From IMG/VR virus record IMGVR_UViG_3300032093_000120: a stretch of 64,000 nucleotides of DNA; one strand, 5' to 3'. This document shows, piece by piece, positions 6,252 through 60,647 of the stretch (positions within the stretch are counted from its first letter, which is position 1; the number at the start of each line of letters is the position of its first letter). The DNA is from an uncultured virus (IMG/VR IMGVR_UViG_3300032093_000120) (Duplodnaviria; Heunggongvirae; Uroviricota; Caudoviricetes). Under the pieces are notes generated by a model, which saw nothing but the letters and a program-made list of their open reading frames with translations, was not told the origin of the DNA and did no database searches. A program made the position numbers and the translations under genes.

Positions 6252-6254
6252 AGT

Positions 6255-23800: not shown

Positions 23801-25213
23801 TCCGCCGTCAAGAACTTCACTGGTGCGTTGCGTGGCACTGCTCCAGAATACCAAGCCCTGTTAAACGCTGGTATCTTGGGTGGCTATGAGTTCTCACAGA
23901 ACGTGGAAGCAAGCGGTAAGCAACTCAGTAAAGAGTTAGCCAAGTACGGTCCGACCACAACCTTTGGCAAGATCACCAAGCCGTTTACATCCCTGTGGGG
24001 TGCGTTAGAGAAAGGCACTACAGCCTCTGACGCTGCGACCCGTATGGAGGTTTACAAGAATGTATTGGCTGAGACCGGTAATGAGGCGGAAGCCCTGTAC
24101 CGTGCGCTTGAGGTGATGAACTTCAACCGTAAGGGTAACTCAGCGGTCGTCCGCATCCTGACTGCCGCCGTGCCGTTCCTGAATGCACGCATGCAAGGTC
24201 TAGATGTTCTTTACCGTGCGTCATTTGGTCAAATGGCTACGCAAGACGCAAAAGCAATTCAGAAGTCGTTCTTCATTAGGGGGGCAACTATCATGGCTAT
24301 GTCCATGATGTACTGGGCGCTGACCCATGATGAAGAAGATTACATGAAACAGGAACAGGAAACCCGTGACAACTACTGGTTAATACCTAGTCTCGGCATC
24401 AAGATTCCTATTCCGTTTGAGGTGGGCGTTATCTTCAAGGTGATCCCTGAGCGTATCGCTGAGTATGCCTTTGGCAACGACACAGGCAAGGACTTTGCCG
24501 ATGCCATGAAGCGTAACTTCACAAACACCTTTGCGTTTAACCCAATCCCTCAGACCATCCTTCCGTTGGTTGAGGCTAGGACCGACCACTCATTCTTCAC
24601 CGGACGAGCCATCCTTAGTAAGGGACTAGAAGGCGTGGCTCCTGAGTACCAAATAGGACCCAACACCTCGCGCATGGCGCAGTTCTTTGCCAGTTTGACA
24701 AGCGGTATGACGGCACTCCCTGATTTCCTCCGCTCACCAGCAATGATTGATCACATCATCGGTGGCTACACAGGAACGTTTGGCATGTATGCCGTAGACG
24801 CTGTGGATGCGATTGTCAGTGCTAATAGTGATGTACCTAAGGCGTCTAAACGTTTTGAGCAGATGCCCGTACTGCGCAGGTTCTTGCTTGACCCTGAGGC
24901 ACGTGGCAACGTTACGGCGTACTACGACCTCAAGAACGCAACCGACGAGGTGGTCAGGACATCTAACTTCCTTGAACGCACCATGAACTTTGAGAACTTC
25001 GCGGACTACAGCCAAGACACCATAAAGATGTTAGCAAGCGCTGACTTCGTTAAGTCTATGGACAAGGACATGAAGGAGTTAAACGACGTAATCGGCGTCA
25101 TAAGGAACTCCAGCATGAGTTCTGATGAGAAGCGGGATGCCCTGTTGTCCCTCAATCAGGCTCAGAACAACCTGACTGCCAACATTAAGTTGATTAAGAA
25201 ATCACTTGACTGA
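14873..25213 (+). CDS. Giant polyvalent virion protein: zincin peptidase, several ADP-ribosyltransferase domains, GP88-like, ParB-like, C-terminal LPD38-like
   Basis: HESLH at aa 957; two 'FK.WF..S...G.P..MYHGT...MPVYV.A.N.FD...GFD...IKS.TGN.GT' modules; YR/SFT/EQE module; 'RLNVTSD..FYDYTK'; 'EGRHRA'; 'NFNRKG..VPFLNARMQG..KIPIPFEVG'. Confidence 0.8.
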   Translation: MPIYKIQAPDGNIYRIEGPAGANPEDLFRTVAEQRPMAAKTTEELQAEKSAPTSISDLARTAGSSFVGAGKSLVDVFGAGSDISSYLGDVAQKLEQGKTPERLAEMARRAELSKRAEKEGTWAQIKSGLAGVAEAPLESVVGGVFSSAPTIAAGAAALAALPASAPAAIAVGVQRASRILMSAAQGTGEVKGDIHESIKNAYKEKNPNMPPEEVERLATEAQAYTLKNAPLLIGGAAFGAIDAVTGFEKSTSQALKNALSPNKTAFTKEGLQSAIANLPKKAVEAPTYLGQAVKTGIGESIPEGLQGGYGQLAQNVAMSQAGFETPTFQGVAGAAARDALVGALTGTAMSPLSHSVANAEFQADKYLRGVQAQQQFDKEREEFAKTQEQTKENLGVNKTLMLGYEPPAEEEKYTNPAATIKKNELMADEVKFVDTYRKQNGLPPLKSYSIEDIKDAMPNVDPAGEQGRIDSILAAKYGYKPVDDNTGKPVNYTADDVISAAEDEKNVATGTKGFNDFLTRTTGSSDLNTMTQPQLFAAYSAIKQMPESTEKVILPEGTGASRFTDKQYKKAVSWFGQTFESVDNKPLSRDTIIGDIQEATGLEQKQDAEALLDTAVKNGDLAETEERVFRTYDANDKLVSTYRDKEKAAAAAKKQGLNVREETLRQMMPPPAAEPAKRANLPEGYAMSKETIKEGEVPVGFDIFPEGKGKALFTVPTSEAVQEKIDQLIPARKKEAARYLSYMDRDKATLQKARDSLVSMEARGEVGSQAYELAKTKLAKQERVLGNRILKSMERITDYEQPLISRPSEKKKQITREKITVTKQGKFLGSFPDNVKAQEAILVQMSDQELADTASDGRLGAIADRAAKEIERRKSPTGIMVRRTPKAKEELPPLSPELTAVADEISKKLVPILQRMGLGDVGFKIVQSIKNGGEGSYTKNLIQLAIDAEKPLEVMHHESLHALKDLGFFTPQQWSTLENQAQKSWITKYLKNVQVEVEIDGVKQTMSRYDAYVALKYTPEDIVEEAIADAFADFATSKPPGGMIASIMKRLNDLFKAIKNAFNRSGFESAEDIFTKAQRGELKPSNWKATPEVKAQADAYDQQNGILPYTSEGQIKIPLEGEGQKLSLKKAYSEKDVAREQRKQEAGKKFKVLKNDPITGLPLNQDGTVTLYYPTTNEGARELARTKKLVGHSPTANRIYLTNESSAPEVAKNPSMIEQPLGGANVMLQIDPSFLHPLEDHDKSGRRDFFIPIAEGQAFANKARLTKLFTLDAPRTKGLHPDRTLAQVQDAITDTVAKWKNASAQERRLMASQAKATLIAQHNVTRLFGANSKLEKTNIGDYGLTFNGKKVMSTGLGFASAQKINDQQLASTCPKSAICEALCLGETSGQNLLYGGEGEFRSGPRLSQYLKTEALIVNPEAFTVAMIRQIEAFRNAAKAAGKEDGEAGYQPAIRLNVTSDFKPATFEAIINMFPDVMFYDYTKLETKPIAPNHHLTYSSTGASQVVGNKVIYNKESNWDNMVKKFLSNGKNVAMAFTSRNAMPKFVMDERTGKTFEVWNGDEYDARFLDPSREDGAGLIIGLTNKDNTTKPEDAAEKHKGFFLDYDPARDGDTLIIRNQDSLKPGAPVEFKRKEKLSLRSARGMFEDGLIQEVPNYKGREKVIELPIKDFLRLAQEGEVKGKQSDIEDLFKAGTKLNSLPLLMAYNNQKGDLKVQGHEGRHRARALLGQGYDTMPVRFLTSIRWSEQNDPTNFDYEKNWPSKVISEDSDDISIPMPVSREQSMEPYSSEKLSLRKAPDTPAFKRWFGKSKIVNPDGTPKVMYHGTSRDIGAFKPKQAGAIFLTDDSDFAARFSQRSTDFMLNEIAKGIDSKPDEKRALITRLVDDAVANKKLATKENSNGLFDTTREEHIEEFMNRPLSQSMGTVGIGNALTQELSDRMPSGQNIMPVYVKAENTFDYENPRHIKKIIDHFTEIDNDDITWLKAGNWETIESEGVQDAIQFAGFDSFYVKEHGRKNLAVYEPTQIKSATGNQGTFDINEPDVRLSLKKVNELFDKAEDIPESEGVEIIRSNWIGGVSGIGERDSAYDLYRVNGGKKYMSAVQDLVRKELGDNFKGYRLMHTDELEEIQTGAMGSQLASFTLRPDIAQSFANLATYSKVPKDKLKVVEMDLTPEHVWMVGHPAEQELVIDYGQGYNPSAVTEYKEKLSLRSLMPDLRSQRQPPDSKEFKQWFTGSYFTSNGEPLIMYHGTARDITIFRGKQAKAIFITTNPVVAENYTGMGEDYMRAEAYKALTRDEKAELISVVAEQAERDGTINKDELKEIQKNLKKRVPDLKNLPYQIEGEIIESLNNLLPTRGNIMPVYVNAKNVFDYANPNDVNLVMDRLTNYSKTLGKKENPEQYLAAVKGMISRGNWPRIESPEVQEAIRGAGFDGFSVLEAGTKNYAVYNPTAIKSVTGNIGTYGLGEVSTEQAAQFGMTAEQARQAQAEGDIRLSLKKVPVGIPDNVWNLHNRYQEAQGNVAEGEMVSQRKTAATKAFKRLSDAAEAYTGNEQDALKLMQEMNAISGIRQAMAEDDKSALDTYKVMSPALWRQETREKLSLRAATAPAMNAAIDRTTFVREEKGFVERLMEAISPQSWSDFRAKALNRYNAMSVADKKRAQKMGGAALLADQSAESAALMSDLSAGVTASVLGVHDRNGGAPVFRNGVTTVDGSIKGPVAIFAPLARYGDPRIYQMWQFYAGAKRARRYFKDGKEQNYTPSDMAYADQLGQQYPEFKQIFDEWNAFNNALVQYQVDTGVLSKERADEYRKYSDYLPFYRQLEDEATLGPKVFQSISGVKGPKKLKGSEAPIADLMETIVRNVQSGIQAGMKNTAAQRAIKVFEDIGEAVPTHPTDTGPSTVYALVNGEKKAYIVADHALYNSMQSLNLPELPFLGFFAGPANLLRNLVTKDPGFMLANMVRDSMSAWVTSGVSMTPVASAVKNFTGALRGTAPEYQALLNAGILGGYEFSQNVEASGKQLSKELAKYGPTTTFGKITKPFTSLWGALEKGTTASDAATRMEVYKNVLAETGNEAEALYRALEVMNFNRKGNSAVVRILTAAVPFLNARMQGLDVLYRASFGQMATQDAKAIQKSFFIRGATIMAMSMMYWALTHDEEDYMKQEQETRDNYWLIPSLGIKIPIPFEVGVIFKVIPERIAEYAFGNDTGKDFADAMKRNFTNTFAFNPIPQTILPLVEARTDHSFFTGRAILSKGLEGVAPEYQIGPNTSRMAQFFASLTSGMTALPDFLRSPAMIDHIIGGYTGTFGMYAVDAVDAIVSANSDVPKASKRFEQMPVLRRFLLDPEARGNVTAYYDLKNATDEVVRTSNFLERTMNFENFADYSQDTIKMLASADFVKSMDKDMKELNDVIGVIRNSSMSSDEKRDALLSLNQAQNNLTANIKLIKKSLD

Positions 25214-33530: not shown

Positions 33531-33773
33531 ATGCCCCGTGATTACCGTAAAGAATATGACAACTACCAAGGAAAGCCTGAGCAACTGAAGAATCGGGCTG
33601 AACGAAACAAGGCACGTGCCGACCTAGTGAAGAAAGGTGTAAACGTTGCCGGCAAGGATGTAGCGCACGTCAAGGCCTTGTCCAAAGGCGGAAGCAACAA
33701 GACCGGAGTGCGTGTTGAGCCGGCCTCCAAGAACCGATCATTTAAACGCAAGTCTGACGGGAGCATGAAATGA
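33531..33773 (+). CDS. Small HNH endonuclease-like protein
   Basis: 'RDYRKEY..RNKAR..GKDVAH.KALSKGGSN..RV..ASKNRS'. Confidence 0.7.
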   Translation: MPRDYRKEYDNYQGKPEQLKNRAERNKARADLVKKGVNVAGKDVAHVKALSKGGSNKTGVRVEPASKNRSFKRKSDGSMK

Positions 33774-34024
33774 CCCGACAAGACATAGCAGACATGTACG
33801 GTGATGAACTGCTGTTCATTGACCCTGAGAAGTTTGACAAGTGCATCATCGGTGTTGCCACTCGCTGTGGCATGCCGTGCTCCGTGGTCTATGACAAAGA
33901 TGAACTCATCAAGGTTTACATGGACGAAGGCATGAATGAAGAAGAGGCACTTGAATTCATATCGTTTAACGTTGAAGGTGCGTACGTTGGAGAAACGACC
34001 CCGCTAATCATGGAGCGGATATGA
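33770..34024 (+). CDS. Conserved phage hypothetical protein
   Basis: 'FDKCIIGV...VVYD...M.EEEALEF..FNVEGAYVGETTP'. Confidence 0.65.
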   Translation: MTRQDIADMYGDELLFIDPEKFDKCIIGVATRCGMPCSVVYDKDELIKVYMDEGMNEEEALEFISFNVEGAYVGETTPLIMERI

Positions 34025-35703
34025 ACCTAGACCATGTAGATTTCAACGAACACGCACGCATCGCCTGTCCCGAATGCTCGGACGATAGGAAGAAGTCCAA
34101 CTCAAAAGACATGACCCTGACCCGTAAACCAAACGGGGCAATCATGTACCACTGCCACCATTGCCTCACAAGCGGGCTTTTAAAACCTCAAAACGCACAA
34201 CCTAGGGAGAATAAATTGTCCGCTGTACCCAACGTAGCAATCACAAATAATAAATTGCAGGAACATCACTACGCGTGGTTGTTTAAACGAGGTATATCCC
34301 AGCAGACCGCAGACAAAATGAAATTGTTCGCTGCCGATAAGTTTTTTAGCAAACTCGGCAAGACATCTGAAGCCATCGGTTTCCCCTACTACAGGAATGG
34401 CGCACTCGTAGCAGTTAAGTACCGCTCGTTCCCTGAGAAAGACTTCACCCAAGACTCAGGCGGGGCACATGATTTCTTTGGCATCGACCTAGTTGAGAAG
34501 GGCAAGCCCATCATCATTGTTGAAGGTGAAATAGACGCACTCACAGTTATGGAATGTGGAATAGAGAACGTGGTCTCCGTGCCTAGTGGTGCTCCCATCA
34601 AAGTGGCAGACGGTAAAGTATTGCCAAGCGAAGACAAGAAGTTTGCCTATGTATGGAACGCAAGAGAGATCATTGAGTCAGCACCCTACATCGTATTAGC
34701 CACCGACCAAGACTCAGCGGGTCAAGCACTAGCCGAAGAGTTAGCCCGTCGTATCGGTAAAGACAAGTGCCGTATTGCCAAGTTTGACAAGAAGGATTTA
34801 AATGAGGTTCTACTTGATGACCCCACTCGGCATAGTGTCAGGGAGATCATAGACAAGGCAACACCGTACCCCGTGGCGGGCTTGTCTGATGCGGGCATGT
34901 ACTTTGACCGTTTAAACGACCTCTTCAACAAGGGTACTGGAAAGGGTTTCTCAACAGGTTATACCTCGGTAGATAGCGTTTACACGGTAGCACCTAGCCA
35001 ATTGACAGTCGTCACAGGTTATCCGTCATCAGGCAAATCTAACTTCATCGATCAGGTCATGGTCAACCTAGCCAAGCAGTCGGATTGGAAGTTCGCTGTG
35101 TGCTCCTTTGAGAATCAACCTGAGATTCATATCTCACGCCTCATGGAGATTTACACCAAGAAGCGGTTTTTTGATGGCAAGGATCGGATGTCGGATTGGG
35201 AAAAACAGGATGCGTTTAAATGGGTACAGGATCACTTCCTGTTTATCGATACCAACGGGGAAGAACCTTCAACCTTGGATTCAATCCTAGACCGTGCACG
35301 CATTGCAGTTAAACGTATGGGTGTGCGGGGCATGGTGATTGATCCCTACAACTACATAGAGTTAGACAAGAGTAACTCCACTGAGACCGAAGCCATCAGC
35401 AACATGTTGACCAAGGTTCAAAAGTTCGTCAAAGCCAACGACGTGCATTGTTGGTTCATCGCTCACCCATCTAAGATTAACCGTGCGGGGGTTGAACAGC
35501 CCCGACCTGACGGCATGTCAATCAGCGGATCGATGGCATGGTGGGCGAAGACTGACTGCGGTATCACTGTGCATAGACAGGAGCAGTGCGTTGAAATCGC
35601 TGTGTGGAAATGTAGGCATCGGTGGATTGGGACGCAAGGGGAAACGACCCTTCTCTACAACAAGACGTCAGGCACGTACTCAGAGAACCTAGATCAGTTC
35701 TAG
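34021..35703 (+). CDS. T7 gp4/Twinkle-like primase-helicase
   Basis: N-terminal Zn finger (CPEC..CHHC), TOPRIM 'IVEGEIDAL', 'ATDQD', Walker A 'GYPSSGKS', 'IAHPSK'. Confidence 0.92.
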   Translation: MNLDHVDFNEHARIACPECSDDRKKSNSKDMTLTRKPNGAIMYHCHHCLTSGLLKPQNAQPRENKLSAVPNVAITNNKLQEHHYAWLFKRGISQQTADKMKLFAADKFFSKLGKTSEAIGFPYYRNGALVAVKYRSFPEKDFTQDSGGAHDFFGIDLVEKGKPIIIVEGEIDALTVMECGIENVVSVPSGAPIKVADGKVLPSEDKKFAYVWNAREIIESAPYIVLATDQDSAGQALAEELARRIGKDKCRIAKFDKKDLNEVLLDDPTRHSVREIIDKATPYPVAGLSDAGMYFDRLNDLFNKGTGKGFSTGYTSVDSVYTVAPSQLTVVTGYPSSGKSNFIDQVMVNLAKQSDWKFAVCSFENQPEIHISRLMEIYTKKRFFDGKDRMSDWEKQDAFKWVQDHFLFIDTNGEEPSTLDSILDRARIAVKRMGVRGMVIDPYNYIELDKSNSTETEAISNMLTKVQKFVKANDVHCWFIAHPSKINRAGVEQPRPDGMSISGSMAWWAKTDCGITVHRQEQCVEIAVWKCRHRWIGTQGETTLLYNKTSGTYSENLDQF

Positions 35704-35727
35704 TTAGAAAACTTAAGGAGAGAAAAT

Positions 35728-35750
35728 GGGGACTGGATGTCCCCTTTTTT
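35728..35750 (+). terminator. Intrinsic terminator after primase-helicase
   Basis: GGGGAC-TGGAT-GTCCCC followed by a T run. Confidence 0.75.
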
Positions 35751-35753
35751 ATG

Positions 35754-36007
35754 TACCTGCTGTGCGTTTAAACAGGGGGGGGGGGGGGGTGGGGTGATTC
35801 CTAGCATGCCCCCCGTCATGCTTTTCAAAAGTCCCCTTGGTAAACGTAGTCAAAACCAAGGGGGTTAGAAGTCAGTCACATCACCCACGCTAGACCTCCA
35901 ACTTATACCTGCTGTGCGTTTAAACGGTACTTCTGGCCGCTGCTGGATGCTGTTGGTGCGGCCTATTATGTTTAAACACTCAATCTGGCTTAAACACTCA
36001 ATCTGGC
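35754..36007. repeat. Repeat cluster: 20-bp direct repeat, G15 tract and 18-bp tandem repeat
   Basis: TACCTGCTGTGCGTTTAAAC at 35754 and 35906; G15 at 35775-89; TTAAACACTCAATCTGGC twice at 35972-36007. Confidence 0.9.
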
Positions 36008-36232
36008 ACGGTACACGGCTCGGTGCAATGAATCAAAGCGACCACAAAGTCGGGGTAACCGACCCTTGGTCATCTTGTAAACATTCCAACTGCCGTTGTA
36101 GGAAATGTACTTCTCACCCACGCTGATAAACCGCTCGTCATTTTGTAGATTGACTAGGCTGTCGTATTTGTAAGCGGTCTTTAAAAACATGGGGTCTCTG
36201 TTGGTGATGGTCTTAATCGGATTCACATTCAT
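35990..36232 (-). CDS. Hypothetical protein (last gene of the leftward early operon)
   Basis: ORF track; operon context. Confidence 0.45.
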   Translation of the reverse strand: MNVNPIKTITNRDPMFLKTAYKYDSLVNLQNDERFISVGEKYISYNGSWNVYKMTKGRLPRLCGRFDSLHRAVYRARLSV

Positions 36233-36367
36233 CCTCAGTCAGACTAACACCGATCCTCTTTTGCTCGTCCTCAGGCATGTGCTCAAGAACCAACATCACA
36301 AGATAAGCGGTCTCTGAATCAAATAGGTAATTAACCAGTGCCTCTCGTTCACGGTCAGTAAGATTTG

Positions 36368-36658
36368 TCATTTCGCACTCCACTTCGACAGCACAGCCAG
36401 CGCACCGTTTAAACGCTCTGTGAAGTCATCATCCTCAACACCAAAATTGTGGATGTATGTGTCGGGTGCGTTCTCTTGTGCCAATTTAATCACTCCTTGC
36501 AACGCTGAAATCAACTCAGAATTGTTGCTTGCAATCTTCCACAAGTCATCAGCAAAGTCAATTAAATTTGTACTCAGCAAGAGGTCATGTTTTTTTGCAA
36601 GCGCATCCAACATTTTTTCCACCTCACTCCACGGTTTGTTGTTTAAATCACTGATCAT
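36368..36658 (-). CDS. Hypothetical early protein
   Basis: Likely start MISDLNN after AAGGAGG. Confidence 0.55.
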   Translation of the reverse strand: MISDLNNKPWSEVEKMLDALAKKHDLLLSTNLIDFADDLWKIASNNSELISALQGVIKLAQENAPDTYIHNFGVEDDDFTERLNGALAVLSKWSAK

Positions 36659-36841
36659 TTTGCATCCTCCTTCACACGTATTGCCCAAACAATTCTTATC
36701 CAACCATACAAATTCTGTGCTTCTTTTAAGTCATCAAACGTGTTGTTTCCGTCCTCATCATTGACGTAATCGCCTGTCTCTGAGTTCATTACCATGTAAC
36801 CCGCAGAGGTTTTAATAATTGCAAATGTCATTCTGTGCTCC

Positions 36842-37099
36842 TTAAAGAACTGATAAATATTTACTTAACACCTCAAAGTCTTCTTTAGGTATCTCTGTGC
36901 TACCCGAATCAAATATCAATGAGGAGTCAGACCAATAGCCCTCTTGGTCTTCATCCCAATCATCCTCGTCACCACCACGCCACTCCATAGCCACCCTCTC
37001 TGCGTACTCACTAGGGTTACCCGCAGTGGCAAATAAATACTTTGTGTCGTATTCCAAATCACCATTGCGCTCATGTATTTCGCCAATGTAATATTTCAT
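36842..37099 (-). CDS. Acidic hypothetical early protein
   Basis: AGGAG RBS; ATGA overlap. Confidence 0.6.
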   Translation of the reverse strand: MKYYIGEIHERNGDLEYDTKYLFATAGNPSEYAERVAMEWRGGDEDDWDEDQEGYWSDSSLIFDSGSTEIPKEDFEVLSKYLSVL

Positions 37100-37314
37100 T
37101 TTGTTACTCCTGTAAATTCTTTAACACGGTAGTCGATTACCTCGCCACCACCCTTCGCACGCCCACCATCAATCATGCGTTTAAACATGACTGCTCGCTC
37201 CTCTGCCTCATCTTTGGTGTCATGTATGGACAACAAGTCCCAACGATTAGGCACGGTCTTAAACTTTAATAATCGCTCTAAAACGTATGTCATGGGCAAC
37301 CACCGTTTTCCCAT
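37096..37314 (-). CDS. Hypothetical early protein
   Basis: ORF track; coupled to the next gene. Confidence 0.5.
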   Translation of the reverse strand: MGKRWLPMTYVLERLLKFKTVPNRWDLLSIHDTKDEAEERAVMFKRMIDGGRAKGGGEVIDYRVKEFTGVTK

Positions 37315-37462
37315 TCAATGCGTTCTTGCAATAACTCTTTTGCTAATGACAATGCGTGATCCAACAACTCGCTGAGTTTCTCCTTGTCATCAGCGAATTG
37401 TTTGCACAAATCGATAGCGTCTACTATTTCCTCTTCTTTTAGTTCCATTTCAATACTCCTGT

Positions 37463-37672
37463 TTAAACGTTATCTTCATCGCTATCACCACTCCTCCACT
37501 CCGTAGTCACCCAATACAAATCAACTACGTCACCCACATTTACAACGTCACTAATGGGTATGCGCTTATCTCCCTCCCATGAGTACACCTTGAAATCTTG
37601 TGGCATCTCTTTTAGAACCTCAATAAGTTCTGCGACCGTCAGTGTTGCTTTATTACCTAACATGATTAGCAC
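37463..37672 (-). CDS. Hypothetical early protein
   Basis: 'LTVAELIEVLKEMPQD..V' motif common in small phage proteins. Confidence 0.55.
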   Translation of the reverse strand: MLIMLGNKATLTVAELIEVLKEMPQDFKVYSWEGDKRIPISDVVNVGDVVDLYWVTTEWRSGDSDEDNV

Positions 37673-37875
37673 TCCTTAAAATTAAATGGCAAGTGGGTTT
37701 CGCTCATAACGTCACCCTCAGCGTTATAGACAATGACAATGAACATGTCTTCTTTTTGTTGGACATATACATAGCCGTTCTGCTTAATGACATCGCCACC
37801 GTCATCATGCATATCAAAGTTAACCACCACTGAGTCATCATCCAAGCGATCAGTGTTCATCACTACTGTTTTCAT
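37666..37875 (-). CDS. Hypothetical early protein
   Basis: AAGGAGTAGAT-ATG start. Confidence 0.55.
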   Translation of the reverse strand: MKTVVMNTDRLDDDSVVVNFDMHDDGGDVIKQNGYVYVQQKEDMFIVIVYNAEGDVMSETHLPFNFKEC

Positions 37876-38086
37876 ATCTACTCCTTTAATTAACTACAAA
37901 GTCACGTTGAAATTTTTCTATCAACTGATCGGCTTTACTCGCCAACTCTTCTTTTTGCTCTCTCGTAATAATCACTGTGCCTGATGCAACCCACATCAAC
38001 TCCTTCATTGTGTTAACAATTAGACGTTGCATTTCAGTGCCACTGACAGAATCTAAATTGTTCATATCTACTCCTATGTTTAAACG

Positions 38087-38305
38087 TTAATGCATTTCAT
38101 CGGATTCAGGGTGAAAAAACTTCTCGTAATTCCACGCATACCCGACATGGTCTAAGAACTCCTGACGGTCAAGACGGTTCACAGCATGCAGAACCGCCAA
38201 CTTAATCAGGACAGCACCGACTTGGTCACTACCCAACTCCGCATCGGCAATATGCGTTGCTAATTGTTCAAACAACCGCAACATCTTTTTTTCGTCATCA
38301 TCCAT
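38087..38305 (-). CDS. Hypothetical early protein
   Basis: Likely start MDDDEKK. Confidence 0.5.
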   Translation of the reverse strand: MDDDEKKMLRLFEQLATHIADAELGSDQVGAVLIKLAVLHAVNRLDRQEFLDHVGYAWNYEKFFHPESDEMH

Positions 38306-38400
38306 ACAACCGCCACACATACAAATCAAATACGATCGCCAACACGGCACACGCATAGACAAAATAGATAACCCAAAAACCAATATACGTTTTCATAAAT

Positions 38401-38676
38401 TTACTCATGGCTCATCCTTTGCATTAAAAACTTCATACTCTTACGTGCGTGATCGTCATAACCACGCTTGGCGATATCTTCAAGCACTAGCAACATATCA
38501 GGCGCAAAAGAAATTAACTTTGCGTTGGCACGTTGTGTACCTACTGGCATCGCTCGGCTACTGCAGTCAGCAACTATCATGCTCCCGCCTGTAGGGTCTT
38601 GCGTCCAAACCGTATTGCCCTTTGACCCGACAGTCGATGGGACAAACCAGTGTCCCCCTGCTATGTGTTTAAACAT
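38401..38676 (-). CDS. Hypothetical early protein
   Basis: 'ANAKLISFAPDML..L' motif common in small phage proteins. Confidence 0.55.
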   Translation of the reverse strand: MFKHIAGGHWFVPSTVGSKGNTVWTQDPTGGSMIVADCSSRAMPVGTQRANAKLISFAPDMLLVLEDIAKRGYDDHARKSMKFLMQRMSHE

Positions 38677-38860
38677 GGGTAGACTCCAGCACACGCATGC
38701 CGAAACAGGCGCAAAGATATTGATTGGCGCAGTCTTCATCATCGATGAATTTATATTCCTCTACCAAGTCCCAATCGTTTTCCTCAGCGTTGTACTGGTA
38801 CACCTCCCATGCACCGTTGAGGTCATAGGGGCGTGCCCTGTATTCTTTAATCTTGAACAT
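38669..38860 (-). CDS. Hypothetical early protein
   Basis: AAGGAG RBS. Confidence 0.5.
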   Translation of the reverse strand: MFKIKEYRARPYDLNGAWEVYQYNAEENDWDLVEEYKFIDDEDCANQYLCACFGMRVLESTHV

Positions 38861-38870
38861 GTGATTCTCC

Positions 38871-40502
38871 TTATGCCACTAATTTGATTTTGCTGAATGC
38901 CACTGACCCGATGCTGTGAACATCACGCACGGTCACGTTGTGCTTGTATACGTTGGATACGTTTTGCTGTATGCCCAAGCCTATGGTTGTGATGCCAAGG
39001 TTTTCGCCTGAGTTAACTTGTGCCTTGGTCTCATCGACATTGCCTTCACCATCAGTCAACACAAAGCAAACCTTACGCTGTGCTGAGTGACCGTGCAATA
39101 ACTCATGGGCATAGCGCACTGCAAAGTAATCGTTGGTGCATCCGCCCGAACCAGTGTGACGTAATGCATCGATGGTCTTCTTTGCGTTGTCGCTGAACTT
39201 CTTAGCCACGCCCACTTCATCACCAAATGTCAGCAGTGCTGTATCGACACCCGCTTTGCTGAGTGCATCCAACAGGGATGCGCATGCGTTGATGGCGCAC
39301 TGCATGGGTGAGTTAGGCAAGTCGCTGATGAACATTGACTGTGATACATCCAACACAATCACCACTGCAGAGTCGATACCTTCAACATCTAACCTACGTT
39401 TAAACACACGGTCATTACCCTGTGGCACGGAATGCAAAGCATTGACGTTCAACGCACCCGCCTTGCGCTTAGGTTGGTACTCGCTTGTGCCTGTATTCTC
39501 AAAGAGTTTACGCACCTCATAACGTAACTTAGCACCCACGTTCACGTCAGCCTTGAACTGTGGATTACGGCATGCATGCCCACGCTTGGTGATACCGTTG
39601 GCTTTAGAGTACGTGCCCTGTGCTTGTGTTCCCTCAGGGGCTTTAGACATTGGCTCTACTGGGCGTGCCTTGCAAATGTCACCGTCTTTTTTCACTGGTG
39701 AACATGCCTTGCCTGTGGGCTTAGGACGGTCAGTAGTACCCTCACCCTCACCCTGTGCCTGATCGTCGCTTGTAGACCCCTTCTCGTCGGTCTGAGCACC
39801 ATTGCCTTGCCCCTGTCCCTGACCTTTGCCCTGACCGTCAGGGTTGCCATCCGATGGCTTGTCGCTGTCACCCTTGGGTTGTGGGTTTTTGTTGTCGATG
39901 TTTTGCAGTTGATCAAATACCCACACTGCGATAGCCAATGTGTCGAATGAATTTTGGACAGTGGTAAGACGTGCGCATGCAACGTCAAATATTGGTTGCA
40001 ATCCCTCAGCCAAGGGTAACTTCACGGTTGCGTGCTTGCGTGCATAGACAGCCAACAGGAAGGGGTAGCGTGCGGGGTGATGCCACTTGTCATCCCAACC
40101 AACCAGTGCATCAGTGCTCATGCCATCGATCACGCTAGACAAGAGACCCTCAGCATTACCGACTAGACCCTGTGCAATACATGTGTTCTCAATCCATGCG
40201 TCCTCAATAGCGTTGTGCAATTGATCGATGTACTGGTTGTCACCACGTGCGTTGAAGTCGGTGTACTTACGGTGCAACAACTCATGCAAGATAAATGCAA
40301 CGTACTTGTCAAAGGTCTTGCGATCAATGATGGCGTCATCTGCCACGTTAGCCAACTCAATGTCACCACGTGCATTGATGCGTGCTGTAGTGACCTCAGT
40401 CCATGACACCGTCACTTGTGGCAGTGCCAACTCAGAACATAACTTGTGGCATGCACCGTCAATTGCGATGCGGAATTCATAACCGTTTAAACGTGCTTTC
40501 AT
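38871..40502 (-). CDS. CobT-like protein: N-terminal HExxH domain, low-complexity linker, C-terminal vWA domain
   Basis: 'LHELLH..YT...NAIEDAWIE', G/D/Q linker, MIDAS 'DVSQSM', 'LTDGEG'. Confidence 0.85.
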   Translation of the reverse strand: MKARLNGYEFRIAIDGACHKLCSELALPQVTVSWTEVTTARINARGDIELANVADDAIIDRKTFDKYVAFILHELLHRKYTDFNARGDNQYIDQLHNAIEDAWIENTCIAQGLVGNAEGLLSSVIDGMSTDALVGWDDKWHHPARYPFLLAVYARKHATVKLPLAEGLQPIFDVACARLTTVQNSFDTLAIAVWVFDQLQNIDNKNPQPKGDSDKPSDGNPDGQGKGQGQGQGNGAQTDEKGSTSDDQAQGEGEGTTDRPKPTGKACSPVKKDGDICKARPVEPMSKAPEGTQAQGTYSKANGITKRGHACRNPQFKADVNVGAKLRYEVRKLFENTGTSEYQPKRKAGALNVNALHSVPQGNDRVFKRRLDVEGIDSAVVIVLDVSQSMFISDLPNSPMQCAINACASLLDALSKAGVDTALLTFGDEVGVAKKFSDNAKKTIDALRHTGSGGCTNDYFAVRYAHELLHGHSAQRKVCFVLTDGEGNVDETKAQVNSGENLGITTIGLGIQQNVSNVYKHNVTVRDVHSIGSVAFSKIKLVA

Positions 40503-40512
40503 TGTGTGCTCC

Positions 40513-42006
40513 TTAGATGTTGTTGGAGATTAGGGTTTGATCGATAGTCGCTGTGAAGATGGCATCCAATGCGGTAGCCGACTCGCTAGGCTGACGGTTA
40601 GCCACTGCGGTGTCCCATGCATCACGCACTGACAAAACCTTTAGCGATTTGATAAAGGCGATCACACTGCGGATCGATGGTGCGTCCACTATGTCGGCAG
40701 TCTGTACCTTGGCACGTGCCACACGTATTGACTTGAGCACATGGGTTGCTAGTTCCTTGGTGCACCCAGTGTGGCGCATGACAGCGTCAACCTCAGCGGT
40801 AAGGGGTAGGTATTCCATGCGCACCACTTGCGCAAAGCGATCCATCAATGATGAATTCATATTGCGTGTGCCTGTATAGCGTCCTGACTCGTCACCGTTA
40901 CCGAACGTGTTGTCAGCACCGAACACCAGTACACCATTGGCGCGTGTGTGCACACTGCCACCGTAGGAGACTGCAGAATTTGGCTCTAGAAAACCGTTAA
41001 GGGTAGCCAACTCACCCGCATCAGCGTTAGTCACTTCATCCAACAGGAGCACAGTAGAGGGGTGCGTAAAGCCCATCAGGAAGTCACCTTTGACGAACAC
41101 GGTCTCACCGTTGACAAGACCAGTAGCACCCGCATAGTCTTCACACGTGGTGTACTTGTGGAAGTTGATGCGTTTAAACGCACGTCCTGTGCGGGCGCAG
41201 AACTGACGGACTGACTCGCTCTTGCCTGTGCCCTTCTCACCGCCAAGCCACACGTTGTCACCGTTGATGTCAGCCAACAGGAAGTGGCGCAAGACCTTCT
41301 CAGTCCACACAAAAAACGGATCGATGGCGGGGGCAGAGGGGTCATTCCACATGCGCACCATGACAGGGTTGCCCTTAGGATCACGCACGTCAACACCGAA
41401 CACGTCCGATGCTGACTTGGTCTCAGTGCTATACACCGATGCAAGGTCAGCGACTACAGCCTGTGCCCCGACAGCATCGACAGCCTGTTTAAACGGTGCG
41501 AATGCATCAGCCACAACGGTGTTCACCGCACGTGCAATGGCGTCATCGTCAAGGTTGACAGCCCCGATGCTGTGCTCTGCCTTGTCAAGGCGGGAAAGCA
41601 ATTTGCCCACGGTCTTGTTGATGGCGATCACCGCATCGTTGACCGAACCGATTTTGCCCAGTGCGTCCTGATGCACGTCATTGGCTTTTTGCATTGCGTC
41701 CAAGGCTGTGCTTTCCGCACGTGATGCGACAGCGGACGTGGCTTGCACCGTGGCGGACAGTGCGTTGTCCACAGTGGTAGTTGGGGCAGTGGGGCTGTAA
41801 GGGGTAGCACCCTTAATTAATTGAATGCCCTGATCAGGGTTAGCGTGGTAACTGGCGATCACCCAGTCAGTCAGCGTGTCGATCTCCTGTATAGGAGACA
41901 TGATGGTGTGTGCGTTGATTCCAAGTGCGCTCAATGCCCCCTTGCGGATGGGCATAGGGATGCGGGAGATTTCGGTGCGGATGGTGTTGCGTGTAGATGC
42001 ATTCAT
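40513..42006 (-). CDS. CobS/MoxR-like AAA+ ATPase
   Basis: Walker A 'GEKGTGKS', Walker B 'LLLDE', 'ADNTFGNG..GRY.G', 'SLMDRF'; likely start MNASTRN. Confidence 0.88.
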   Translation of the reverse strand: MNASTRNTIRTEISRIPMPIRKGALSALGINAHTIMSPIQEIDTLTDWVIASYHANPDQGIQLIKGATPYSPTAPTTTVDNALSATVQATSAVASRAESTALDAMQKANDVHQDALGKIGSVNDAVIAINKTVGKLLSRLDKAEHSIGAVNLDDDAIARAVNTVVADAFAPFKQAVDAVGAQAVVADLASVYSTETKSASDVFGVDVRDPKGNPVMVRMWNDPSAPAIDPFFVWTEKVLRHFLLADINGDNVWLGGEKGTGKSESVRQFCARTGRAFKRINFHKYTTCEDYAGATGLVNGETVFVKGDFLMGFTHPSTVLLLDEVTNADAGELATLNGFLEPNSAVSYGGSVHTRANGVLVFGADNTFGNGDESGRYTGTRNMNSSLMDRFAQVVRMEYLPLTAEVDAVMRHTGCTKELATHVLKSIRVARAKVQTADIVDAPSIRSVIAFIKSLKVLSVRDAWDTAVANRQPSESATALDAIFTATIDQTLISNNI

Positions 42007-42020
42007 TTGTATTACTCCAA

Positions 42021-42620
42021 TTAAACTAGGGTCAAGACGTCTTGATCGACAGGGCAAGAGGGCAAACCATAGGACGCCCACTTAGAAGACAGGCGCACGG
42101 TGTAGCCACAGGATGGGCACTCAGCCTTTAGCATGCGTGTGCCTTGTTTTTTCTTACCGTTAGAGAATGCCAACTCAGCGTGGGGGTATGCACCCAGTGA
42201 GTCGATGATTGCCCCGTAGGCTTGATCAAACCCGTTAGCCCCTTGCGTGTAGCCCCATGCATTCTTACGTGTGGGGTTGACAGGCTCTAGGAGCATGGCT
42301 GATGCGATCTTTTGGAAGTTGATGCCGTGATTGAATCCCCCCTTGGCGGTGTGGCACAACTCATGTACCAACACTTCAAATACTTTGCGAGGGTCAGCGA
42401 TGACAGGGGAGATAAGGATTTCGTAATGCTTGTCGGCACTGGCAGTGTCGATCCAACATTCACCAATAGCGTTGTTGCGCTTGGCATGTAGGGGAAAGCC
42501 ACAAGTAAGGCGGACTTTGTCGGGCAGTATTGACCCTGCAATTTCAAATGCGGGGCGCAGTTCGTTGTATGCAACGGTGAGCCACTCTTCACGTGTGGCG
42601 TGGACGGTAGGTAAGGTCAT
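42021..42620 (-). CDS. SprT-like zincin metalloprotease with C-terminal Zn ribbon
   Basis: 'TREEWL', 'IGECW', 'LVHELCH', 'TRMLKAECPSCGYTVR...GLPSCP'. Confidence 0.75.
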   Translation of the reverse strand: MTLPTVHATREEWLTVAYNELRPAFEIAGSILPDKVRLTCGFPLHAKRNNAIGECWIDTASADKHYEILISPVIADPRKVFEVLVHELCHTAKGGFNHGINFQKIASAMLLEPVNPTRKNAWGYTQGANGFDQAYGAIIDSLGAYPHAELAFSNGKKKQGTRMLKAECPSCGYTVRLSSKWASYGLPSCPVDQDVLTLV

Positions 42621-42690
42621 ATGATGATCTCCAAATCAGTAGCAAAATTACTACTGCAAAACCCACAGCGTGGGCTTCACGGTATTAACT

Positions 42691-42933
42691 TCAGACGTCA
42701 TACTCATGGTGAACGATAGCAACCACTTGGCTATCGGTCTTCTGCATGACCGTCACACGTTTGCAGAAGTAACCTCCCGCTTCCTGATAGGTCTCACGGT
42801 AAACCTGAGGTAACAGCCAATCACGTGCTTGCTCAAGGGTGAGGTCATCATCTCTACGGGTTAGTAAAAGATACTGATCATTGCCATCGATACCGTGTTC
42901 TATGTTGCCTATTTTGGTGACTGTAATTTCCAT
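42691..42933 (-). CDS. Hypothetical protein (first gene of the leftward early operon)
   Basis: AAGGAA RBS, downstream of the promoter at 42976-43005. Confidence 0.55.
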   Translation of the reverse strand: MEITVTKIGNIEHGIDGNDQYLLLTRRDDDLTLEQARDWLLPQVYRETYQEAGGYFCKRVTVMQKTDSQVVAIVHHEYDV

Positions 42934-42975
42934 GCTGTCGATTCCTTTTTTTGCCTGACGATGTTGTCAAGTTGG

Positions 42976-43005
42976 ATTGTAATACTGTCTGTCAAACCAT
43001 GACAA
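42976..43005 (-). promoter_or_regulatory. Leftward early promoter TTGTCA-N18-TACAAT
   Basis: ATTGTA 42976-81 and TGACAA 43000-05 on the + strand. Confidence 0.55.
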
Positions 43006-43255
43006 TAGTTACCTGAGTAAACCGTAGGGTTATTAGAATGAGCGATCAGTTAGTGAGCACTAGTGCACTTATATATAGGCATGCCAACTGTGGATGCATG
43101 TGGATATATACAGGCTGGATGTACGTACAGTGGTTGTAATGGGCTGACCGATTTAAAGGGGCTAGAAGGGGCTGAAAGGGGTTTAGGCGGGGTAGGTATA
43201 GGCAAGGAAAATTAGGGGGCTTCCTGACAATGTGTAGGGATTAAGTATTAATAAG

Positions 43256-43318
43256 TTATCCACACTATCCACAATCAGGCTGTTAATAACAGGAAGTTAT
43301 CCACACCCATGTTGATAA
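43256..43318. promoter_or_regulatory. DnaA-box cluster
   Basis: TTATCCACA at 43256 and 43297, CTATCCACA at 43265, reverse TTATCAACA at 43310. Confidence 0.6.
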
Positions 43319-43406
43319 CGTGCTACCATGTACATACGAACAGTGCTGTACGTTTAAACAGCATGTGTTTATTTACATGGGTTATTCCACAGGGAGGGTT
43401 TGTGCT

Positions 43407-44057
43407 ATGGACAAGATGACAAAAGATGACTACATGCGGGCACTGGAAGAAGCCAACGAGCCTGATCAAATTGATAACAATGAAAACCCTGTCTTAAGCG
43501 AAGCGGAACGGTTGGCGCATATGGCAGACGCACCTAAACGTAGAGTAGACGGTGAAGTGATAACAAGTGACAGGATGCGACCAATAACAGCACAGCAACA
43601 AGCATTCGCTGTAGGCATCATCCAAGGGAAGACACTGCGACAGGCATACCGTGACGCATACCCAAATGACACAAGCAGTGACCACGTCATCAGCACCAAT
43701 GCCAACAAACTGTTTAAACACCCTAAGGTACAGGAAGTGCTCAGGGATGCATGGGAGACCATCACCGAAAACCTAGTCGATGACGTGGCGGGGACGAAAC
43801 GATATGTACTCAAACAACTATTGGAACTGAGTAAACAAGCCAAGCAAGAGGGCAGTCAATTAAAAGCATTGGAGTTACTGGGCAAGGCATCAGGACTGTT
43901 TACACACACCGACAGCAAAGCAGAGGTGACGATCAGCAGTGATCAACTCAAGAAGGAACTAGCGGGGCACTTGCGCCTTGTGCGTCAACGTCCTAGTGCA
44001 GTGCAACCGTTAGGAACTATCACCGATGTAAACGCAAAGACGCCTACCGCTGTTTAA
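43407..44057 (+). CDS. Terminase small subunit
   Basis: 'ITAQQQAFA..IIQG.T.RQAYRDAY...ANKLFKHPKV', 'LKALELLGK..GLF'; upstream of terL; GGAGG RBS before ATG 43407. Confidence 0.75.
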   Translation: MDKMTKDDYMRALEEANEPDQIDNNENPVLSEAERLAHMADAPKRRVDGEVITSDRMRPITAQQQAFAVGIIQGKTLRQAYRDAYPNDTSSDHVISTNANKLFKHPKVQEVLRDAWETITENLVDDVAGTKRYVLKQLLELSKQAKQEGSQLKALELLGKASGLFTHTDSKAEVTISSDQLKKELAGHLRLVRQRPSAVQPLGTITDVNAKTPTAV

Positions 44058-44317
44058 ACGTGGCATGTCGCTGACCCACCGTGCCCCGACCCCCCGCGCC
44101 ACGCATTGGGTCCCCCCCTCACGTATACGCTCTAATCCACTCCCACAATTACATGCCCCCTACCCCTGTGAACGTTCTCATCCCTGCCACACCTGCTTCA
44201 CGTGAAACACACCCCCCGGTATGTCGTCAAAACGGAAATGGGTGGGGGTATATATATTTGTTTAAACATAGTTGCGAAGAAGCGCAGCGTATCGCAAAAC
44301 ACATGTGTAAACGGGGG

Positions 44318-44346
44318 TTGCGAACGTTCGCATAATCGTTTAAACT
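44318..44346 (+). promoter_or_regulatory. Promoter TTGCGA-N17-TAAACT with a 14-bp palindrome
   Basis: TGCGAACGTTCGCA (44319-32) overlaps the -35; GTTTAAAC (44338-45) overlaps the -10. Confidence 0.5.
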
Positions 44347-44350
44347 ACAT

Positions 44351-44518
44351 CAACACGCATGGGGATTGGCGATGGTCTAGGCCAGACCGACCACCGCAAG
44401 GAAGAGAGTCAGTCCCCAGCCGTGTTGGTAACCGTACTGAGGGTTAGCGCCTTAGTTCCTTGCTTTGTGCAAATACCAAGGAAGTCAAACACACTGCTTT
44501 ATGTGAGCGGTTACCAAC
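44351..44518 (+). ncRNA. Structured RNA: long hairpin plus cloverleaf-like domain
   Basis: Stems 44351-57/44421-27, 44361-70/44408-17 and 44424-34/44508-18, with three inner hairpins. Confidence 0.6.
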
Positions 44519-44531
44519 TTCAGGATAATCT

Positions 44532-44762
44532 ATGACAGAACGCACTCAATTAGTTTTTGACTTTATAAAGGCTTACATGAAGATTCATGGGATACCGCCT
44601 TCCTACGAGGTTATTGCCAAGGGTCTAGGGTTGAAGTCCAAATCTAACATCCACCGTATTGTTCATAAGTTAAAAGATGAGGGTCTTATTGAGACCAAGC
44701 CCTACAAGTTCCACGCTATTAGGCTTGTGGATAAGTCAGCTAGAGAGATGGCTGCGCTGTGA
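44532..44762 (+). CDS. LexA DNA-binding-domain-only protein
   Basis: 'TERTQLVFDFIKAY...GIPPSYEVIAKGLGLKSKSNIHR.V.KL.DEGLI...AIRLV'; no peptidase domain. Confidence 0.85.
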   Translation: MTERTQLVFDFIKAYMKIHGIPPSYEVIAKGLGLKSKSNIHRIVHKLKDEGLIETKPYKFHAIRLVDKSAREMAAL

Positions 44763-46276
44763 ATCACACGCTCCTTACACAGGAAGAGATTGAAGACTAT
44801 GTTGAGATAGTCGATACCGTGTCAGAGGCGGAGAGAAAGAAGATATTCCGTATCCTTGAGCATGACCGTGTCCACCGGTGCCGGGAATCTTTTATTTACT
44901 TTGTCACCCAGATGTGGCCTGTGTTTATCTCAGGTAAGCATCACCAGATCATGGCAAACGCATTTGAGAGGGTGGCTAGGGGTGAGTTAAAGAGGTTGAT
45001 TATCAACATGCCTCCCCGGCACACAAAGAGTGAGTTTGCTTCTTACCTGTTGCCGGCGTGGTTCTTGGGTAAGTTTCCACATAAGAAGATCATCCAGACA
45101 GCGCACACAGCCGAGTTGGCGGTGGGCTTTGGTCGTAAGGTTAGGAATCTGGTCGGGTCAGAGAACTACGGTAAGGTGTTTGACACCAAACTGTCCTCGG
45201 ATTCAAAGGCTGCCGGTCGCTGGAACACGGAAGTTGGTGGAGATTACTTCGCTATCGGTGTGGGCGGTGCTGTAACGGGTAAGGGTGCTGATCTTTTGAT
45301 CATCGATGACCCGCACTCAGAGCAGGAAGCCAAGCAAGGTAACCCTGCGGTCTATGACAACGTCTATGAGTGGTACACATCTGGCCCTCGTCAGCGTCTA
45401 CAACCGGGCGGGGCGATCATTATTGTGATGACGCGCTGGTCTAAACGGGATTTAACCGGTCAGATCGTCAAGAATTCAGGAAAAGAAGGCGTAGATACGT
45501 GGGAAGTGATCGATTTCCCCGCGATTCTCCCGTCAGGAACACCGTTATGGCCCGGATTTTGGAAGAAAGAGGCACTTGAAGCCCTCCGTGCTGAACTCCC
45601 TGTCTCTAAATGGGAAGCACAGTACCAACAAAACCCAACATCTGAAGAAGGTGCGATCATTAAACGGGATCAATGGCGCATTTGGGAGGCAGACACCCCA
45701 CCTACATGTGAATATCTGATCCAGTCATGGGATACCGCATTTGAAAAGGGTAACCGTGCCGACTATTCAGCCTGTACAACATGGGGTGTGTTTAAACATC
45801 CTAATGAGCACGGAGACTACAGGACAAACATCATCGTTTTGGATGCGTTTAAGAAGCGCATGGAGTTCCCTGAACTCAAACAAAAGGCATTTGAGATGTG
45901 GAAGGAGTGGAATCCGGATAGTCTCATAGTGGAGAAAAAGGCCGCCGGTGCGCCTTTGATCTATGAGATGCGTCAGATGGGAATCCCGCTCCAAGAGTAC
46001 ACACCAAGCAAAGGAAGCGATAAGATAGCGCGTGTAAACGCTATTTCTGACATGTTTTCGTCAGGAATTGTGTGGTGTCCAGACACAAGATGGGCGGATG
46101 AGTTGATGGAAGAACTCGCCGCTTTCCCTAATGGAGACCATGACGACCTTGTTGACTCAACCAGCCAAGCCCTTCTCAGGTTTAGACAAGGTGGTTTCAT
46201 CCGCATTGAATCAGATGAGGAAGATGACCCCGTTTACTTCCGCAGCAGAAGGCAAGAAAGATACTACACCGTTTAA
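44759..46276 (+). CDS. Terminase large subunit
   Basis: 'IINMPPRHTKSE', 'LLIIDDP', 'IVMTRW', 'QSWDTA', 'FPNGDHDDLVDS'. Confidence 0.95.
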   Translation: MNHTLLTQEEIEDYVEIVDTVSEAERKKIFRILEHDRVHRCRESFIYFVTQMWPVFISGKHHQIMANAFERVARGELKRLIINMPPRHTKSEFASYLLPAWFLGKFPHKKIIQTAHTAELAVGFGRKVRNLVGSENYGKVFDTKLSSDSKAAGRWNTEVGGDYFAIGVGGAVTGKGADLLIIDDPHSEQEAKQGNPAVYDNVYEWYTSGPRQRLQPGGAIIIVMTRWSKRDLTGQIVKNSGKEGVDTWEVIDFPAILPSGTPLWPGFWKKEALEALRAELPVSKWEAQYQQNPTSEEGAIIKRDQWRIWEADTPPTCEYLIQSWDTAFEKGNRADYSACTTWGVFKHPNEHGDYRTNIIVLDAFKKRMEFPELKQKAFEMWKEWNPDSLIVEKKAAGAPLIYEMRQMGIPLQEYTPSKGSDKIARVNAISDMFSSGIVWCPDTRWADELMEELAAFPNGDHDDLVDSTSQALLRFRQGGFIRIESDEEDDPVYFRSRRQERYYTV

Positions 46277-57360: not shown

Positions 57361-57369
57361 GAGCTAAAA

Positions 57370-57558
57370 ATGGATAAAGCAGATTTAAAACAAGACAAAA
57401 AAATGATTGCTAGTGCAGTGCATAAGCATGAAAAAAGGTTACATCAAGGCATGGCTCCAACCAAGTTTAAAAACGGTGGAGTAGCCGGCGTGTCTGGAGA
57501 AGCAATGAAAGCGGTAGGCCGCAACATGGCACGTGCAAACAACCAAAGAGGTCGTTAA
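57370..57558 (+). CDS. Small basic protein
   Basis: AGGAG RBS; 'FKNGG' motif. Confidence 0.55.
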   Translation: MDKADLKQDKKMIASAVHKHEKRLHQGMAPTKFKNGGVAGVSGEAMKAVGRNMARANNQRGR

Positions 57559-57559
57559 T

Positions 57560-58982: not shown

Positions 58983-58990
58983 GAGAAACC

Positions 58991-59590: not shown

Positions 59591-59600
59591 GGAGTCTTAA

Positions 59601-60644: not shown

Positions 60645-60647
60645 GAA

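Follow-up and report, generated by a model that had tools for sequence, protein, structure and literature searches.

The stretch of DNA considered here, hereafter the window, comprises 64,000 nucleotides of an uncultured caudoviricete (IMG/VR record IMGVR_UViG_3300032093_000120) and represents a circular phage genome of 63,503 bp, the last bases repeating the start in an imperfect 497-bp overlap. Our subject is an 8.1-kb block of this genome (positions 35,961-44,094; 12.8% of the circle) that is purged of short restriction-type words and ends abruptly beside terS, the gene for the small terminase subunit. Most of the block is occupied by a leftward operon (35,990-42,933, minus strand), which opens with a small open reading frame (ORF) without a family match (42,691-42,933), continues with genes for an SprT-like zinc protease (42,021-42,620; a weak Pfam match below the curated cut-off), a MoxR/CobS-like AAA+ ATPase (40,513-42,081; likely start ATG 42,006) and a vWA (CobT-like) protein (38,871-40,502), and ends in 13 small, mostly acidic and lineage-specific ORFs (35,990-38,860) that are candidate host-interaction genes. 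Ahead of the operon lies a sigma-70-like promoter (42,976-43,005, minus strand; 10 of 12 consensus matches only), which, together with the small variable ORFs, is the kind of arrangement that may be expected of early genes read from a host promoter. It is followed by a cluster of DnaA-box-like motifs (43,253-43,306) just upstream of the late gene terS, which is on the opposite, plus strand (43,320-44,057; likely start ATG 43,407).

To the right of terS lies a conserved C-rich non-coding element (44,075-44,260), consisting of a C-run block, an 18-nt core at 44,126, and then a C/G-run with a TATA-rich motif. Beyond it, a conserved palindrome (44,319-44,332) sits in a probable rightward late promoter (44,318-44,346, plus strand), proposed from an alignment read by eye, on which the promoter scan was silent; as it lies upstream of a LexA-type helix-turn-helix (HTH) gene, the palindrome is also a candidate operator. 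The HTH gene and terL, the gene for the large terminase subunit (together 44,532-46,276, plus strand; terL 44,759-46,276), are the first unpurged genes. On the left, the operon converges with a primase-helicase gene (34,021-35,703, plus strand), with a terminator-like hairpin between them (35,728-35,744; a pattern match on both strands). Scans with PHROG and Pfam profiles place terS, the HTH gene and terL at the head of a series of rightward late genes that includes those for the portal, capsid, tail fibres, lysin, an ejection protein and a giant polyvalent protein, and assign the middle genes at 25-35.7 kb to a Sak-like protein, an exonuclease, RusA and the primase-helicase.

The first-pass annotation had described about 8 kb (35,990-44,060) as cleared of common restriction sites, and all of its counts were reproduced: GGCC, CCGG, AGCT and GCNGC are absent, CGCG occurs once (at 40,941), and GATC (32), GCGC (25) and GTTTAAAC (12) are retained. 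Its figure of about 30 expected copies per 4-mer was too high, an order-2 Markov expectation being 13-22 per single word. The site-free gaps extend from 35,960 to 44,380 for GGCC and from 33,720 to 44,216 for CCGG. When the five named words are pooled over 35,961-44,094, there is one site against 79.8 expected at the rate of the rest of the genome (P ~2e-33), and for a seven-word set one against 89.3; the loss of restriction words from this block is thus confirmed. The depletion extends to CCNGG and GGNCC (none in the block), CGNCG (2 versus 111 outside) and the asymmetric CCAGA/TCTGG (1 versus 160 outside), and further asymmetric words, viz., CGAAG, CCAGC, CCTGC and GAGGC, are strongly reduced when the window is pooled with two relatives (G002 and L015). 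Words of these kinds are targets of Type II, IIS or III enzymes. At the scale of the whole circle, CCWGG and 17 six-base palindromes are missing altogether.

Codon use or composition cannot explain this purge. Expectations for each gene were obtained by shuffling synonymous codons within it, such that both the protein and the codons were kept, and the observed sites were 0 versus 10.5 expected in terS, 0 versus 8.3 in the SprT gene, 1 versus 29.4 in the MoxR gene, 0 versus 20.4 in the vWA gene and 0 versus 22.0 in seven small ORFs, i.e., observed/expected ratios (O/E) of 0-0.03. The primase-helicase gene, with 2 versus 27.9 (O/E 0.07), forms a shoulder of the purge; the ratio is 0.28-0.31 in the middle genes of both strands, 0.35-0.44 in the polyvalent protein gene and 0.52-0.86 from terL (0.67) to the capsid gene. 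The purge has also left its mark on the proteins: the 2,407 residues encoded in the block contain no Ala-Ala against 19.9 expected (74 versus 72.6 in the late proteins), and neither Pro-Gly nor Gly-Pro against 5.2 expected for each. Across the orthologous block genes of 22 genomes, Ala-Ala is absent only where GCNGC is purged (four genomes; the remaining 18 have 6-27 copies), and Pro-Gly is absent from all 12 CCNGG-purging genomes (the remaining 10 have 3-8). As Ala-Ala is always encoded as GCNGC, and Pro-Gly and Gly-Pro likewise entail sites of the purged kinds, the loss of a dipeptide follows from the missing word and is not an independent proof of the purge; the comparison shows, nevertheless, that orthologous proteins have changed amino acids to permit the removal of words.

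A TerL search of viral contigs, from which the best 80 of 384 relatives were kept, allowed the same question to be put to the wider family. In 17 long records, the window included, 33 words were scored, with a word counted as purged when cut to <=15% over the 7.5 kb that adjoin the edge on its left. At least one word is purged in 13 of the 17 records (12 of the 16 relatives), with sets that vary between lineages: the window and G002 purge five to six words; G004 purges CCNGG alone; G009 and G014 purge CCGG, CCNGG, CGCG, GGCC, GGNCC and CCAGA and keep AGCT and GCNGC; and CGCG is purged in G003, G005, G006 and G019. As the words had been chosen separately for each genome, the same test was moved round the circle of 10 near-complete genomes; its maximum fell at the edge-abutting interval in nine, and distant intervals yielded at most one passing word each. 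The closest relatives share only ~72-86% nucleotide identity with the block of the window, yet keep the O/E of purged words at 0.00-0.17. Trees of SprT, encoded inside the block, and of TerL, encoded outside it, recover identical clades, and therefore the block has been inherited together with the late genes. As a separate observation, G008, one of the records without a purge, is the only one of the 17 with many CCWGG sites (92) and has no ART-type motif in its polyvalent protein; its host perhaps has few restriction systems, as far as a single case can tell.

The depletion is not uniform across the genome, and both local O/E and sliding counts place it at terS and the leftward operon. Its two boundaries differ, which corrects the first-pass annotation: the right edge alone is sharp, and the left side fades over ~30 kb. 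In successive 3-kb bins leftwards from the edge, the window holds 0, 3, 9, 14, 18, 23 and 42 purged words, and site density rises with distance from the edge, with a Spearman coefficient of 0.96 over ten bins (the first 30 kb) and 0.75 round the whole circle; for the first ten bins of nine other genomes the coefficient is 0.65-0.98. Just beyond the end of the operon, sites are retained in a small patch (35,932-35,960), and G002 has a similar one. The late gene terS, on the strand opposite to the operon, is free of sites in all 13 purging genomes examined, and with one genome taken from each of six clades it has 0 sites against 34 expected, in a test with hand-set word sets, for the definition of which the terS stretch had itself been used. 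When genomes are pooled, the change point falls 40 bp left of the conserved core (range -100 to +60), and the log likelihood falls by 38 if the edge is moved to 43.24 kb; the first retained site right of the block is at 44,095-44,098. The edge thus coincides with the C-rich element, which, at ~190 bp, is present in all 20 aligned sequences among the matches listed. The element folds no better than shuffled sequences (z 0.41), and the minus strand of the window has no match to a strict G-quadruplex pattern. Together, these observations show a strong, positional, polar and lineage-tuned selection against restriction-type words, with its edge at a conserved element.

The same element is a place where contigs tend to end. 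A scan for its core found at least 120 loci, with 79 of the 80 checked belonging to the family, and 11 of the 120 matches listed come from contigs that terminate no more than 60 bp from the core, against 1 of 120 for a conserved 18-mer of the capsid gene, a control whose loci were not checked for family membership (p=0.005). All seven near left ends fall 2-29 bp before the core, equivalent to 44,097-44,124 and in register with the first retained site, and none of the 79 family loci has a left end 30-300 bp from the core. Of seven contigs found through the MoxR gene, three continue through the element, one breaks off at 43,570 and the remaining three at 43,919-44,034. Overlaps at the ends of G002, G004 and G016 were judged to be assembly overlaps and not accepted as terminal repeats. 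We propose that a genome end or packaging site lies at ~44,090-44,125.

This bears on the first-pass suggestion that the physical end lies just past terS and enters the cell first. It is favoured by the polar, position-dependent purge that includes terS, the edge on a conserved element, the clustered contig ends and the recurrence of the purge, with different word sets, in relatives; the terminus itself is one that we infer from these signs, and the one depth step seen lies at 43.2 kb and not at 44.1 kb. The account that we consider probable, with moderate confidence, is that the end of virion DNA just after terS enters first, that host polymerase reads the leftward operon, and that staged entry drives the purge. 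Virions would have one defined end in the element, at ~44,090-44,125, which could be a fixed end of unit-length DNA, a short repeat, or the product of pac cutting in short series with low redundancy. Packaging would run rightwards from the element, so that the terS side is packaged last and, as DNA that is last in is first out in phage packaging and entry, would therefore be the first to enter. About 1.1 kb in, the host sigma-70 promoter, directed away from the proposed entry end, would drive the 7-kb leftward operon in the orientation of T7 transcription-assisted entry. Slow or staged entry would leave this arm exposed, unprotected and for the longest time, to the Type II enzymes of the host, and probably to some of Type III/IIS, and selection has cleared their presumed sites from it even by way of amino-acid changes. 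Later DNA would meet a cell already being taken over, and the avoidance, partial there, fades with what would be the order of entry. The agents of takeover might likeliest be early products (the small acidic proteins and SprT-MoxR-vWA) rather than a methylase, though this is a guess.

The DnaA-box cluster, defined by what we take to be the consensus, has 2-5 strict boxes and holds the same place in the window and in all nine related records that cover the stretch (G001-G009); it is a candidate origin for host DnaA or a candidate entry pause. A broader and rather doubtful extension is that a large freshwater family, unrelated to T5 and T7, has DNA ends at the conserved element between terS and terL, staged entry and a possible DnaA pause 0.8 kb inside, of the sort proposed for the stop signal of T5, with the word sets, legible even in the dipeptides of each lineage, listing the enzymes of its hosts; if true, sequence alone would suffice to locate termini by the purge edge and to predict hosts by the word set.

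Several observations weigh against entry from an end at ~44.1 kb. Four of the 17 records (G007, G008, G012 and G013) pass no purge test, TCGA runs the other way (24 in the block versus 17 in the other 56 kb), and the tail-fibre arc is site-poor too (O/E 0.25-0.36). No contig end lies within 60 bp of the element in 109 of the 120 matches listed; breaks at a C/G-run element common to co-occurring relatives may be artefacts of assembly or sequencing, and the contig ends of the two sides overlap, as at a branch of an assembly graph. As judged from contigs only, the depth in one metagenome run (X2) rises from ~12 to ~22 at 43,211-43,244 and remains elevated as far as 50.8 kb or beyond, while contigs of three others (X1, X10 and X11) show no step, and one from X1 spans 41,155-45,270 with the element included. 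The X2 step sits at the left edge of the DnaA-box cluster and may reflect one-way firing of an origin, long terminal redundancy at a pac site, or the presence of a second genotype. The class of the terminase is not diagnostic, its best cultured matches standing at 47-58% and others at ~30-37%, and no termini were found for the best ones; TerL has no PDB sequence match, and terS has only four weak phage matches. Finally, scans of the ORFs of the window and its relatives with PHROG, Pfam and NCBIfam found no anti-restriction family or methylase.

The depth step also speaks for a different end with the same polarity of entry, which we hold to be unlikely: headful packaging from a pac site at ~43.24 kb, upstream of terS, with at least 12% redundancy. 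The first DNA in would then be a dispensable duplicate of the terS-terL-portal-capsid region, and the purged arm would represent the first non-redundant DNA along with a buffer near pac. In P22 and SPP1, the textbook cases, pac lies close to terS, the X2 step (43.21-43.24 kb) is ~1.8-fold and at least 7.5 kb long, and redundant ends could be joined into a circle with the help of the Sak-like annealing protein, the exonuclease and RusA. Yet the step appears in only one of four runs and is accounted for just as well by a second genotype or by replication that leaves the DnaA boxes (43,256) in one direction; moreover, such packaging predicts neither the sharp edge that six clades show right after terS nor the clustering of contig ends at the element.

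It is quite unlikely, in our estimate, that the purge reflects the time at which genes are needed rather than the order of entry, i.e., that the genome enters fast, that the early operon and a DnaA-box origin must stay uncut up to takeover, and that other regions are shielded by injected proteins or have their cuts mended by the recombination genes of the phage. The early promoter, operon and candidate origin do all lie within the block, and recombination genes and a virion-type polyvalent protein are at hand. However, in each of 13 genomes the late, opposite-strand terS equals the early genes in its lack of sites, the middle genes on the two strands share an O/E of 0.28, and, as the Spearman coefficient over the first 30 kb indicates, density tracks position and not gene class.

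Import of the block as a module from a phage of another host, or a bias in codons or composition, is very improbable and is largely refuted by the shuffles, the trees, the O/E in relatives and the dipeptide data. Other words do differ in the block (TCGA, ACGT and TGCA are raised), and a GATC-free arc over the tail-fibre genes shows that this genome does carry mosaic signatures; against this, SprT and TerL fall into the same clades, the purge persists in relatives at ~72-86% identity, it has one sharp edge and one graded side, and shuffles that preserve codons and protein expect 8-29 sites per gene. Erosion by mutation, whereby host C5 methylases mark the words and deamination of 5-methylcytosine removes them without selection by nucleases, seems hardly credible: it would fit the purged palindromes, which are presumably typical 5-methylcytosine targets, and the kept GATC, GANTC and TCGA, presumably N6-methyladenine targets, but it predicts a non-zero equilibrium and no confinement to one arm after replication, GCGC is kept, and the C-to-T neighbours of purged words are not specially raised (O/E 0.48-1.34 versus 0.41-1.38 for other neighbours), which argues against deamination.

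The block appears to work, in an unrelated phage group, like the first-injected regions of T5/BF23 and of T7-like phages, while being a member of neither group. In the accessible sections of a study of Tequintavirus, restriction sites in T5 and BF23 matter mainly in the leading part of the genome, the first-step-transfer region, which carries small early genes (PMC10644984), and T5 is described as having 8 DnaA boxes in its injection-stop region (bioRxiv 10.1101/866236, in part). The likeness includes a leading 8-13% of the genome in which restriction sites would chiefly matter, small early genes and an array of DnaA boxes. Unlike in T5, there is no evidence here of a 10-kb terminal repeat or of A1/A2 genes: none of four runs has raised depth over 36-43 kb, a weak test of a ~10-kb T5-type repeat as it uses contigs only, and the PHROG matches shown for the 79 ORFs of the window include no annotation for A1/A2 or the siphovirus gene set. 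Further, the DnaA boxes here lie ~0.8 kb from the proposed end rather than at the far side of the block, and the purge here takes in terS and fades gradually, with the rest of the genome still avoiding many sites.

The ~1-kb leader and 7-kb operon resemble the geometry of T7. For the T7-like Murciavirus (Autographiviridae), the text available of PMC12455610 reports that only sites in the leading region decide restriction; shared with it are podovirus-type ejection genes and, as proposed here, early genes that the host polymerase would read away from the entering end. In contrast to Autographiviridae, no phage RNA or DNA polymerase match (PHROG) and no Ocr-like match was found among the 79 ORFs of the window, the organisation is divergent with the proposed end between terS and terL, and the gene order is not of the T7 type; and in contrast to Murciavirus, many Type II-like words of 4-5 bp are purged rather than one Type I motif (PMC12455610, in part). 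The mode of packaging matters here because the available portion of the same source expects no such bias in headful packagers, and the present case would put that expectation to the test.

The nearest cultured or annotated relatives by TerL, at 47-58%, are pelagiphages of the HTVC023P type, DSL-LC04, and the group of MinM2, Pag-Yong1 and Pra-JY27. The ejection gene and the kinship of TerL (49-56%) with the HTVC023P-type podoviruses lead us to infer a podovirus build; the termini of these phages were not found in the part of bioRxiv 10.1101/2019.12.14.876532 that was available. MinM2 (L132; TerL 47%) shares a primase, a leftward vWA-MoxR operon and a terS-like gene followed by a similar C-rich stretch (17,929-18,450). 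It differs in that the stretches examined of MinM2, DSL-LC04 and HTVC027P show no local purge; GTAC and GANTC are absent from all 25.9 kb of MinM2 examined. No close nucleotide match was found among 50,697 phage records, a search of a genome collection returned two short contigs of metagenome-assembled genomes and no usable host, and the metagenome runs holding related contigs are labelled freshwater, lake and 'fungus'.

Avoidance of orthodox Type II sites across whole phage genomes has been described (PMC6286503, in its accessible part), and the genome-wide lack of CCWGG and 17 six-base palindromes is of this kind; relative to that work on whole genomes, the block adds a sub-genomic and polar layer. 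A narrow open-access search (2015 onwards) found no paper on such blocks in uncultured phages. T5 and T7-like phages already exemplify the principle; what the present case adds is its reading from sequence alone in a widespread uncultured family with neither machinery, and with it lineage-specific word sets, a purged late gene, a gradient, an edge matching contig ends and a dipeptide read-out across lineages. The purge gives a testable position for the genome end, with a base-level edge, and a direction of entry, points to ~17 genes as candidate blockers of defence, and offers a route for matching phages to hosts through their methylomes.

The suggestion of the first-pass annotation that later DNA is protected by early products or an injected polyprotein gained no positive support. 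The methylase families PF00145 and PF01555 are found in none of 20 related records, among them one that is nearly identical to the window over 41 kb, and the PHROG matches shown for the 79 ORFs include no methylase annotation. As CCWGG and the 17 palindromes are also missing from the rest of the genome, any protection of later DNA is incomplete. Among the small ORFs, 11 of 14 early ones have an isoelectric point below 5, against 4 of 16 in the middle region (p=0.009), as would be expected of DNA mimics; that early products blunt restriction is nevertheless a guess. They have no Pfam or NCBIfam match at E<=0.001; Pfam scans of 14 early ORFs from the window and 65 from relatives gave only NinX (2) and three sub-cut-off matches, and atlas searches with two of the small ORFs gave nothing above 0.9. 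One small early ORF alone is broadly conserved. The MoxR-vWA pair belongs to a widespread viral CobS/CobT-like cluster, for which no anti-restriction role was found in the accessible text (PMC8651126).

The polyvalent protein (14,873-25,213, plus strand; 3,446 residues), encoded downstream of the gene for a 692-residue ejection protein, contains LPD38, ART-PolyVal and GP88 domains, all above cut-offs, and so has the several effector domains by which polyvalent proteins are recognised (PMC5512222, as far as available). Such proteins are predicted, in the available parts of PMC5512222 and PMC9503650, to be injected and to counter defences; no direct link between this protein and the purge was found. 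Seven K/R-L-S-L-R/K linker motifs between its domains, also seen in all six relatives checked, are possible processing sites. It further contains two ART-like repeats that are 41% identical, for one of which a structure model was unusable (mean predicted local distance difference test score, pLDDT, 51).

A few other features of the window deserve mention. No Rfam family was found in it at gathering score. The retained word GTTTAAAC has 50 copies (15 of them within CGTTTAAACG), which lie more densely over the 30 kb to the left of terS; the excess is common to most relatives, and no explanation for it was found, in the literature included. About 12.6 kb over the tail-fibre genes (57,145-64,000 and 1-6,258) is without GATC, with a similar dip in G002, and is possibly a module with a different host history. 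Lastly, a G-rich insert at 35,754-35,925 lies between 20-bp direct repeats and, among the 16 records listed, is present in the window, G001 and G011 only; as its G run has T at two positions both in G001 and in contigs of three runs, the window probably has two base errors there.

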